Below are positions 9,973 through 10,931 of a stretch of 38,872 nt of DNA, piece after piece. Numbering within the stretch: position 1 is the first letter of the stretch; every line of letters starts with the position of its first letter. Below the pieces are notes generated by a model. The model saw only the letters and a list, made by a program, of their open reading frames with translations, was not told where the DNA came from and did not search any database. The translations under genes were made by a program, and so were the position numbers. The DNA is from an archaeon (GTDB lineage Archaea > Nanobdellota > Nanobdellia > Pacearchaeales > GW2011-AR1), in the NCBI GenBank assembly GCA_027341315.1, contig DAIENA010000001.1, positions 1 through 38,872 of the forward strand. The letters are read 5' to 3'.

Positions 9973-10299
9973 ATGGCAAATGGCGAGATTATTCCGGAAT
10001 TAACGAACGGCGAGTTTGAAGAGTTTGCAAAAGACGGGCTTGTGTTTATTGATTTTTTTGCGGAATGGTGCATGCCGTGCACGATGATGAGCCCGATAAT
10101 CGAAGACCTTTCGGAAGAGTTCGACGGAAAAATAAAGTTCGGGAAAATCGACGTCGACGACAACGCACGAATCGCCCAGAAGTTTGAAGTTTCATCGATT
10201 CCGACTTTCGTTTTGTTAAAAGACATGCAGATTGTCGAACGACTTTCCGGGACGATTTCTCAGGACGAACTCGAGGAAGTTTTAAGGAAACATTTGTAA
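9973..10299 (+). CDS. trxA: Thioredoxin
   Basis: FFAEWCMPC active site (WCxPC). Thioredoxin-sized with ...SSIPTFVLLKD. ATG at 9973 preferred over TTG at 9970. Confidence 0.8.
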   Translation: MANGEIIPELTNGEFEEFAKDGLVFIDFFAEWCMPCTMMSPIIEDLSEEFDGKIKFGKIDVDDNARIAQKFEVSSIPTFVLLKDMQIVERLSGTISQDELEEVLRKHL

Positions 10300-10316
10300 T
10301 TTAATCTCGAGAAACT

Positions 10317-10324
10317 TTTATAAA
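10317..10324 (+). promoter_or_regulatory. TATA box (TTTATAAA) upstream of the tRNA-Lys locus
   Basis: The octamer ends 30 nt before the first GGCTCCG copy (10355). It is 140 nt before the acceptor end of the complete tRNA (10465). Confidence 0.45.
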
Positions 10325-10345
10325 CTATTTTCCTAATTTACATCT

Positions 10346-10477
10346 ATTAATAACGGCTCCGTAGCTCGGCTCGCAAGCCCAGTTGCGGTTTCCATTTACG
10401 TTGCACAGATTTTGTGCAACTGAACATTGCTCGGCCTGGTCGACCAGTCTGAACAATTAATAACGGCTCCGTAGCTC
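10346..10477 (+). repeat. 22-bp perfect direct repeat (ATTAATAACGGCTCCGTAGCTC) at 10346-10367 and 10456-10477, duplicating the leader plus tRNA positions 1-13
   Basis: Read directly; the period is exactly 110 bp. The 88 bp between the copies contains a 7-bp/5-nt-loop hairpin (10401-10419), a 12-bp palindrome CTGGTCGACCAG (10436-10447), and a D-arm-like GCTCGGCCTGGTCGA. Confidence 0.9.
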
Positions 10478-10582
10478 AGCCTGGTCAGAGCACCGGACTT
10501 TTATGCACGACTTCGTCGTACGTTCTTCGCGAAGCGTCGCAAAGAAATCCGGGTGTCGAGGGTTCAAATCCCTTCGGGGCCA
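10465..10582 (+). tRNA. tRNA-Lys (anticodon TTT) with a 43-nt intron at the canonical 37/38 position
   Basis: Hand-folded. Acceptor GGCTCCG/CGGGGCC (one G-U pair), D-arm GCTC..GAGC, anticodon stem CCGGA/TCCGG, loop CTTTTA|intron|A, T-arm GAGGG-TTCAAAT-CCCTT, discriminator A, no encoded CCA. Intron 10504-10546: CTTT (10498-10501) pairs with AAAG (10541-10544), leaving 3-nt bulges TAT and AAA. This is a bulge-helix-bulge geometry. Confidence 0.85.
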
Positions 10583-10604
10583 TAATCTTCAATTACAAAA
10601 TAAA

Positions 10605-10931
10605 ATGAATTTGAAAAAACTGTTATCCACTTCTGCCGTTGAGAAAAAGTATTTGGAAGCAGGAAGAGTTTTTGGAGATAATTTGAGTTACATTTTTCTA
10701 GGAAAATGCGTCGAGTTTGAAAAAAATCTTGATAAATTAATTTCTTGGGAATTAGAATATGCAAAAAGAGGATTCAAAACCATCCCCCTTAATGAATTTG
10801 TAGAATTTGGCAGATATGGAAAGGACATAAAAAATATTTTAGGAAAAAAACGCGACGCCGGCGAAAAACCGTCATATCCCGCTCAAAATTACAAAGATAT
10901 TCTTTCATGGAAAGAAATTTTTTCGGATTAA
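10605..10931 (+). CDS. Hypothetical protein (108 aa)
   Basis: The ORF-track entry 10503-10931 overlaps the tRNA, so I trimmed it to the first ATG after the tRNA. Confidence 0.45.
   Translation: MNLKKLLSTSAVEKKYLEAGRVFGDNLSYIFLGKCVEFEKNLDKLISWELEYAKRGFKTIPLNEFVEFGRYGKDIKNILGKKRDAGEKPSYPAQNYKDILSWKEIFSD

Follow-up and report, generated by a model that had tools for sequence, protein, structure and literature searches.

The window analysed here is a 38,872-nucleotide stretch of archaeal DNA (contig DAIENA010000001.1) from the 583-kb assembly, 82% complete, of a DPANN archaeon (G000). It contains a gene for tRNA-Lys(UUU), the beginning of which is present a second time 110 nt upstream, with 88 nt of non-coding sequence between the two copies. 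This insert, together with the duplicated 22-mer, belongs to a lineage-wide family whose members are small, non-coding and located at the ends of tRNA genes. Most likely the element would be read through during transcription of the tRNA, and the resulting leader would be removed by RNase P.

The two copies of the 22-mer, ATTAATAACGGCTCCGTAGCTC (10346-10367 and 10456-10477), show 0 mismatches and are offset by exactly 110 nt, as had been described in an earlier reading of this DNA made from its letters (to be referred to as the sequence-only reading). A third copy is absent from the window even at 3 mismatches, and 0/100 shuffles matched. The downstream copy leads into a complete tRNA gene, recognized by Rfam at 57 bits (E 9.5e-12). 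The gene is interrupted at the canonical 37/38 position by 43/44 nt, and its anticodon, as read from the sequence, is UUU. The insert (10368-10455) has a G+C content of 52%, compared to 34% for the genome and 20% for the flank that precedes it, and it is structured, as the 110-nt leader folds at -42.1 kcal/mol (z = -4.4 relative to shuffles). The sole good TATA box, TTTATAAA, is located 30 nt before G1 of the upstream copy (10355), with the same spacing as at the insert-free tRNA-Lys genes of relatives. At four such genes (L004, L009, L018 and L029) a AACTTTTATAAAC box is found at an equal distance. No TATA-like box at a usable distance could be read in 10368-10464, between the insert and the tRNA. 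The repeat, the promoter placement and the composition of the insert are therefore as the sequence-only reading had them.

Related inserts are found in other genomes. A BLAST search with 10300-10590 against 60 relatives gave matches that extend into the insert in several genomes of the same genus, which are metagenome-assembled genomes deposited under 'Candidatus Woesearchaeota archaeon'. Among the oriented loci, a homologous insert of 90-150 nt precedes genes for Lys-UUU, Lys-CUU, Ile-GAU, Ile-UAU and Arg-UCU, and each of these 5'-end inserts is itself preceded by a copy of the first 12-14 nt of the respective tRNA. A covariance model (R1, see below) has matches in 10 of the 23 same-genus genomes, in 12 of 150 from other genera of the family, in 14 metagenome contigs, and in 9 contigs from GTDB that bear the label Woesearchaeota, Nanoarchaeota or archaeon. 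The sequence-only reading would have regarded the repeat as a neutral duplication remnant if relatives lacked the upstream copy and nothing else matched the insert, which is clearly not the case.

The orthologous site, behind a thioredoxin gene, is filled in the window and in L012, and carries a shorter derivative in L017 and L019. It is empty, with the promoter directly before the tRNA, in L004, L009, L018 and L029. Going by the tRNA sequence, the nearest orthologue is that of G007 (98% identity), and it lacks a preceding insert.

The inserts have a common fold. RNAalifold on ten copies predicts a helix P2 (RATTGCG with TGCAATY), a 4-bp helix Px (GCAA with TTGC) and a 3' hairpin P3 (Table 1), and model R1 was built from these ten copies. 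In the window, P2 is formed by CAGTTGCG and TGCAACTG, and the GCAA of Px is paired with the distal TTGC. The local elements that the sequence-only reading had listed are all present in the sequence, namely GGCT-CGCA-AGCC (10368-10379), TTGCACA-GATTT-TGTGCAA (10401-10419), the palindrome CTGGTCGACCAG (10436-10447) and a second D-arm-like GCTCGGCCTGGTCGA (10429-10443). The local hairpins of that reading are not predicted by RNAalifold on the ten copies, and pairing of GGCT with AGCC is unsupported by the comparison with relatives.

In an alignment of 38 distinct copies, 89% of the cells are paired, and 13 of the 19 pairs vary on both sides (54 cells). None of 500 shuffles attains any of the observed covariation measures, and slid partners pair in only 24-42%. 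The alignment was fitted to model R1; compensatory variants are nonetheless clear by eye, both for P2 (CAGTTGC/GCAACTG, TGATTGC/GCAATCA, CAATTGC/GCAATTG and GTTTGC/GCAAAC) and for Px (GCAA:TTGC, GACA:TGTC, GAGA:TCTC and ACGAT:ATCGT). Judged by these sequence comparisons, the fold of the element is conserved, with strong covariation. Two further structural proposals were not retained. Pairing of nt 5-10 of the outer tRNA copy with ATTGCGR looks compensatory in three loci and fails in most others (by eye), and a K-turn or C/D-box reading of the internal loop is unsupported by the sequence. A search of Rfam 15 with 10200-10700 (E up to 10) matched only the tRNA itself, with no curated family for the insert.

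The build of the element is the same from target to target. A truncated outer copy of the tRNA end is followed by the stem module. The tRNA copy is then continued for a short stretch, which recurs in inverted form and so gives a hairpin, and a spacer leads to the intact gene. At 5' ends the outer copy extends to nt 12-14 and is followed by the module, with the consensus AACTCGCAAGC ... AACATTGCTCG. The tRNA copy then continues (nt 15 to ~20) before the sequence folds back on itself. The resumed copy is specific to the target, being GGATA at tRNA-Arg, GGCTAG at one tRNA-Lys and GGTC in the window. Skeletons without the module, [tRNA 1-21]-loop-[inverted 8-20]-spacer-[tRNA], are found in L017/L019 and in another genus of the family (G024).

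In the window, the 5' arm of P3 (TCGGCCTGG, then TC) imitates nt 12-20 of the tRNA, the apex GGTCGACC (10438-10445) is a perfect palindrome, and the 3' arm CCAGTCTGA is antisense to the tRNA D-arm. The first half of the tip is the target's own D-loop end, giving GGTC/GACC in the window and GGTT/AACC, GGCT/AGCC or GGAT/ATCC at other tRNAs. A palindromic tip in four sequence versions is expected of an inverted DNA duplication, and an RNA hairpin has no need of it. The tip of P3 therefore points to a DNA-level event, and not to RNA splicing.

Table 1. Features of the tRNA-Lys(UUU) locus and its inserted element (positions in the window)
Feature	Position	Strand	Remarks
TATA box TTTATAAA	10317..10324	+	Original tRNA-Lys promoter, now preceding the truncated outer copy; read from sequence
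Outer direct repeat	10346..10367	+	9 nt of leader and tRNA-Lys nt 1-13 (10355-10367); truncated, promoter-adjacent
Conserved structured module	10368..10434	+	RNAalifold consensus; covariance model R1, 100.4 bits; ends in conserved ATTGCTCGG
Helix Px	10373-10376 with 10427-10430	+	Within the conserved module
Helix P2	10380-10387 with 10415-10422	+	Within the conserved module
Tip hairpin	10401-10407 with 10413-10419	+	Competes with the 3' strand of P2
Hairpin P3	10431..10452	+	5' arm TCGGCCTGG and TC, apex GGTCGACC, 3' arm CCAGTCTGA
Inner direct repeat	10456..10477	+	9-nt spacer (native leader) and nt 1-13 of the functional tRNA
tRNA-Lys(UUU) gene, complete	10465..10582	+	Rfam RF00005; canonical 37/38 intron at ~10504-10546; CCA not encoded

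The elements occupy the outer 10-20 bp of tRNA genes, and they are found at both gene ends. Antisense copies matching R1 are located at the 3' ends of genes for tRNA-Phe, Ser, Asn and one further, unidentified tRNA. In these, the final 10-18 nt of the tRNA recur as their reverse complement in the outer copy, and the T-loop is what the mimic behind the module copies. The stem module lies inside the T-loop at 3' ends and after nt 14, in the D-loop, at 5' ends, and P3 is always directed towards the gene body. Comparison of the two strands for the 3'-end copies gave lowest folding energies that are mixed between strands, and the balance of G.U against A.C pairs in 11 aligned 3'-end modules includes conflicting cases.

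The load in G000 is large. When the 350 nt outside each gene were scanned for a repetition of the tRNA's initial or terminal 12 nt (at most 1 mismatch), 6 duplicated 5' ends and 11 duplicated 3' ends were found among 35 tRNA genes (17 ends, 15 of the 35 genes). A module signature of the form CTCG-stem-CTCG is recognized by eye in 11 of the 17 ends, with at least three subfamilies common to different tRNAs. BLAST with the window insert finds no other copy in G000, and the other 16 duplications are diverged subfamilies that R1 does not pick up. In G024, a near-complete genome with a 511-kb contig, the same scan gave 3 duplicated ends among 38 genes and no wrong-side matches, and the two 5' cases among them lack the module. 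The low count without wrong-side matches argues that the scan does not yield noise and that the load differs between lineages.

The sixteen other duplicated ends in G000 are distributed over contigs C3, C4, C5, C9, C13, C16, C25, C27, C34, C44, C55, C63 and C64, and most of them contain a diverged version of the stem module. The affected tRNAs include Arg-CCU, Arg-UCU, Ala, Val, Gly-CCC, Tyr and Leu-CAA, with Ser-UGA and Leu-UAA duplicated at both ends. Tandem arrays are found at L041, L063 and L088, at the tRNA-Asp gene of C5 and at the tRNA-Leu gene of C13. In the last of these (G000:C13:10088-10334) the element behind tRNA-Leu(CAA) forms a tandem repeat in which the 27-nt duplication is identical, and the contig stops within that repeat, probably an assembly break on the array.

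Other inserts have a similar layout. L007, L022, L063 and G000:C5:13348-13448 carry unrelated insert families that likewise duplicate the tRNA start, for example GTAGCTTCCCACAGGGATGAC... and a doubled CAAGCCCAATTTCATTGGCA unit before tRNA-Asp; at L063 one tRNA start is present three times in a row. At L048 (G130:C27:7612-7696), an R1-like element is flanked by a 24-nt duplication with one mismatch and a 125-nt spacer. The duplicated sequence is not called a tRNA by ARAGORN and may be a candidate non-tRNA target.

With the promoter before the outer copy, none after the element, and a 9-nt spacer identical to the native leader, tRNA-Lys(UUU) would be transcribed through the element. Transcription would start from the old promoter at the outer copy, and RNA polymerase would read through the element into tRNA-Lys. 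RNase P would then cut at 10464/10465 and separate a structured leader RNA (~118 nt) from a normal pre-tRNA, and from the latter the splicing endonuclease would excise the canonical intron. The RNA of RNase P is encoded in the genome (131.9 bits at G000:C9:6632-6956) and is present in 23/23 genomes of the genus. Among the possibilities raised in the sequence-only reading, a long structured 5' leader removed by RNase P is most likely the consequence in this window, as judged from the promoter layout and the presence of RNase P RNA. The released leader may persist as a small RNA. An embedded non-coding RNA, another of those possibilities, is also plausible, since the covariation supports the fold and both promoters are intact in four relatives (L038, L044, L045 and L121). 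In these, a second TATA box is located between the element and the tRNA, inside a small hairpin.

The spacer hairpin in these four loci, ATGCATTAA...TTAATGCAT, encloses a TATA-like AACTTTTAAAC box, which would serve the displaced tRNA as a separate promoter. In other subfamilies the spacer hairpin is plain (ATAGTGTC...GACACTAT).

The tRNA-Lys gene is overlooked by ARAGORN with default settings. With introns enabled, the program calls it 'tRNA-Stop(tta)', because the intron is placed one base off. The 142-aa open reading frame (ORF) listed at 10503-10931 begins within the tRNA intron, and its likelier true start is an internal ATG near 10606 (MNLKKLL...).

The outer and inner copies differ in how they are maintained. 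The inner copy is a complete tRNA at every locus, and outer copies have decayed in L113, L121, L125 and L039. In ~28 of 32 family members, the outer copy agrees with the tRNA of its own locus at 11 or more of 12 nt. In the window, the perfect 22-nt repeat includes 9 unconstrained bases and so indicates a young copy; we infer that the element arrived here, or was rebuilt, recently.

Several observations weigh against a family of insertion elements of this kind. The shared sequence starts exactly at the mature tRNA end in most loci, and the preceding flank is unshared (0-3 nt), the exceptions being the window (9 nt) and the tandem copies (15 nt or more). Moreover, outer copies are perfect more often than the divergence of the modules predicts, and they track lineage-specific changes in the acceptor. 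A simple target-site duplication fails to account for this conservation and for the exact start at the mature end. The outer copy, or the whole leader RNA, may be functional. Either the outer copy is under selection, or insertions turn over fast, or the copies are made from tRNA and not from flanking DNA.

In addition, no enzyme that could move the elements was found in G000. G000, at 82% completeness, has no Cas1 (PF01867), and no Y1 transposase (PF01797), TnpB (PF07282), IS110 transposase or LAGLIDADG protein was found in it. In the family, Cas1 is present in 10 of 201 genomes, and its presence does not track the elements. No near-identical copies are found at different loci, so the copies give no sign of recent transposition, and no empty/filled allele is seen in metagenome contigs, where the junction 28-mer is unmatched. 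Finally, the lowest-energy fold of the window copy consists of three local hairpins (-42.1 kcal/mol), compared to -24.2 kcal/mol for the comparative fold. Since the two folds differ, and since the tip hairpin competes with P2, alternative conformers are possible.

A tentative extension of the preferred reading, which we consider possible but would not favor, is that these are a new class of non-coding element that homes to tRNA-gene ends without an enzyme of its own. By analogy, the 5' copy of the left side of the target and the stretch of P3 that is antisense to its right side resemble the logic of a guide. Each copy would build a palindrome derived from its target on insertion, and copies at 5' ends would capture the tRNA promoter. 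With regard to enzymes that are present, the only tyrosine recombinase in G000 is a single Xer-like gene on C13. On C1 (L321 1285-2356, minus strand) there is a reverse transcriptase of the diversity-generating retroelement (DGR) type, with the motifs LGNLTSQ and YVDD, split into adjacent ORFs of 192 and 159 aa. Given this enzyme and the duplications that start exactly at mature tRNA termini, insertion templated by RNA or by a tRNA fragment is possible.

Taken as a whole, the evidence is accounted for best by an insertion element with a co-transcribed RNA that RNase P removes, then by an RNA that serves the host, then by a signature of repair; an intron and the scar of a large element are well behind.

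The second of these holds that the element is a domesticated RNA, either a functional leader small RNA or a cis-regulator of tRNA maturation. It would be made from the tRNA promoter, and its tRNA-like 5' end and D-arm-antisense arm would be needed for function. We regard this as rather unlikely, although a good part of the data is compatible with it. The covariation shows selection on the fold, and the state of the outer copies, mostly perfect and following acceptor changes behind an unshared leader, fits such a function. L038, L044, L045 and L121 keep the outer promoter as well as the second one, which would make the element a transcription unit of its own. The promoter-proximal copy is the best preserved in tandem arrays (C5 Asp), and elements at the same tRNA are similar across genera. 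However, most genera lack the element, as do at least four genomes of the genus at the orthologous site, so it is dispensable. Copies at 3' ends run antisense to the tRNA and are not consistently preceded by a promoter, and the element persists beside decayed outer copies (L113, L121 and L125).

It is improbable that no mobile element is involved and that the arrangement is a mutational signature. Breaks near the ends of highly transcribed tRNA genes, followed by fold-back priming and template switching, would leave a direct and an inverted partial copy, and the stem module would be a separate sequence that settled later in the dispensable outer copy. The P3 tip, a perfect palindrome made from each target's D-loop end, fits such a process, as do the skeletons without a module and the negative transposase search of G000. 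On the other hand, the same geometry recurs at many tRNAs, with conserved module ends (AACTCGCAAGC ... ATTGCTCGG) and a covarying fold. The inverted arm moreover covaries with the GCAAT end of the module, and with GTAG in copies without a module, which indicates a constrained hairpin and not a random scar.

The duplication has obvious likenesses to the attachment (att) sites of integrated elements, and the sequence-only reading had offered an att-type scar of an insertion or excision at the tRNA gene. Archaea are well known to have integrated elements with partial tRNA copies at their flanks: in Pyrococcus yayanosii 44-bp repeats surround the 21-kb island PYG1 (PMC9897764), and in Caldiarchaeum a recombinase lies between the tRNA-Thr gene and a 5' fragment of it located 1.8 kb upstream (PMC3293823). 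As in these cases, inserted DNA separates truncated and complete copies of a tRNA end that form direct repeats, and the native flank is found with the truncated copy. Unlike them, the inserts here are 60-240 nt and not kilobases, and encode no recombinase. A folded, conserved module is located inside a pseudo-copy of the tRNA end of ~20-35 nt and is followed by an inverted copy, and both gene ends are affected, at ~4 in 10 tRNA genes of one genome (15/35). An element carried by its own integrase was considered; the direct repeats of a tRNA end are present, but an 88-nt insert, with spans of at most 250 nt, holds no recombinase or cargo.

The remnant of a larger integrated virus or plasmid, mostly deleted since, is very improbable. 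All 17 duplications in G000 are within 250 nt of the gene, with no distant copies of tRNA ends in that genome. The inserts are homologous and structurally conserved across genera, and no integrase adjoins the duplications. Two scans of IMG/VR with exact patterns gave no genuine copy (3 chance matches that R1 rejects, then 0), and a viral or plasmid origin was set aside. What stands of the att proposal is the duplication of the target around inserted DNA; a conserved structured element, with no accompanying integrase, is not such a remnant.

Known transposable elements were compared as well. Casposons are Cas1 transposons with target duplications of 14-15 bp, some of them at tRNA 3' ends. The elements here are similar in that the target is the end of a tRNA gene, the duplication exceeds 10 bp, is often ~14 bp and covers the gene terminus, and tandem arrays occur. 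In comparison, they are non-coding, lack terminal inverted repeats and have duplications ranging from 12 to 27 bp. A casposon or mini-casposon was rejected on the distribution of Cas1 given above, and because the element ends, GGCTCGCAAG... and ...CAGTCTGAACA, are not inverted repeats. A palindromic element derived from IS200/IS605 was likewise rejected (a target duplication is present, and neither PF01797 nor PF07282 has a match in G000), as was an origin from IS110 or a homing endonuclease, which have no matches in this genome.

Co-transcription of small RNAs with tRNAs is a further point of comparison. Nanoarchaeum equitans reportedly has C/D-box small RNAs that share a transcript with a tRNA, and such RNAs are freed by RNase P or tRNase Z. 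Here too, a structured RNA shares the tRNA promoter, and its 3' end would be set by 5' processing of the tRNA. It differs from those RNAs in having no C/D boxes and no Rfam match, in a 5' end that copies the tRNA start, and in its variability among close relatives.

The last alternative is a 110-nt non-canonical intron in the D-arm, in which the actual 5' exon would be the outer copy, and the splicing endonuclease (EndA) would excise the sequence from there to the inner copy. Deletion of 110 nt at any equivalent position of the repeats gives an identical mature tRNA, and the promoter precedes the outer copy, as this alternative needs. EndA is present in G000 (PF01974, G000:C63:2823-3083, 86 bits), although it is required for the canonical intron anyway, and a link has been drawn between extra loops in DPANN endonucleases and the occurrence of unusually disrupted tRNA genes and incomplete tRNA sets (PMC5829648).

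All 23 equivalent splice pairs of the two repeats were scored by script, out of 10, for the central and flanking helices of a bulge-helix-bulge motif (BHB). Position 13/14 scores 0/10, and no pair within the tRNA exceeds 6/10, with 7/10 reached only at a leader position; the gene's own 37/38 intron, as a positive control, scores 9/10. As the repeats are identical, both strands of the central helix must be the same 4-mer, which must hence be self-complementary. Only AGCU and GGCU qualify (with UUAA in the leader), and none has supporting flanking helices. The only central helix with 4/4 pairs within reach, AGCU with a splice after position 14, is flanked on either side by 1/3 pairs, and its use would place G at the invariant A14. 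Hand analysis and scripted scoring thus agree with the sequence-only reading, which had proposed the intron and found no convincing BHB by hand.

Known BHB introns (PMC4090602, PMC5829648) resemble the element in that extra structured sequence interrupts a tRNA-like D-loop or T-loop, in a lineage known for disrupted tRNAs. Here, unlike those introns, the motif is absent, the element occurs in both orientations, and in all family members an uninterrupted gene adjoins the interrupted pseudo-copy. Decay is seen in outer copies and never in the inner one, four relatives have a further promoter in front of the intact tRNA, and antisense family members are located at tRNA 3' ends, so the D-arm intron is hardly tenable.

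Returning to the reading of the elements as small insertions at tRNA-gene ends, a family of this kind has apparently not been described so far in DPANN archaea. The literature searched holds no description of structured non-coding inserts of 60-240 nt, with direct and inverted copies derived from the target, at 5' and 3' ends of tRNA genes alike. Insertions that duplicate part of a tRNA gene are a known kind of event, and there is a real chance that the mechanism itself is new.

The ~50 sequences with clear covariation provide material for an RNA-family model. Automated annotation of this lineage is expected to mislabel intron-containing tRNA genes like the one in the window, and, if the insertion reading is correct, tRNA annotation in DPANN archaea would need adjusting for truncated copies, long leaders and promoters assigned to the wrong copy. 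Links among mobile elements, split tRNAs and introns have been proposed and are still debated, and the family offers a concrete system in which the disruption and rearrangement of archaeal tRNA genes can be tested. Should the element move by a route not yet described, possibly guide-like or RNA-templated, this would bear on mobile elements in general. For this archaeon, the insertion reading would mean that ~4 in 10 of its tRNA genes (15/35) are flanked by partial copies of themselves that hold a folded module.

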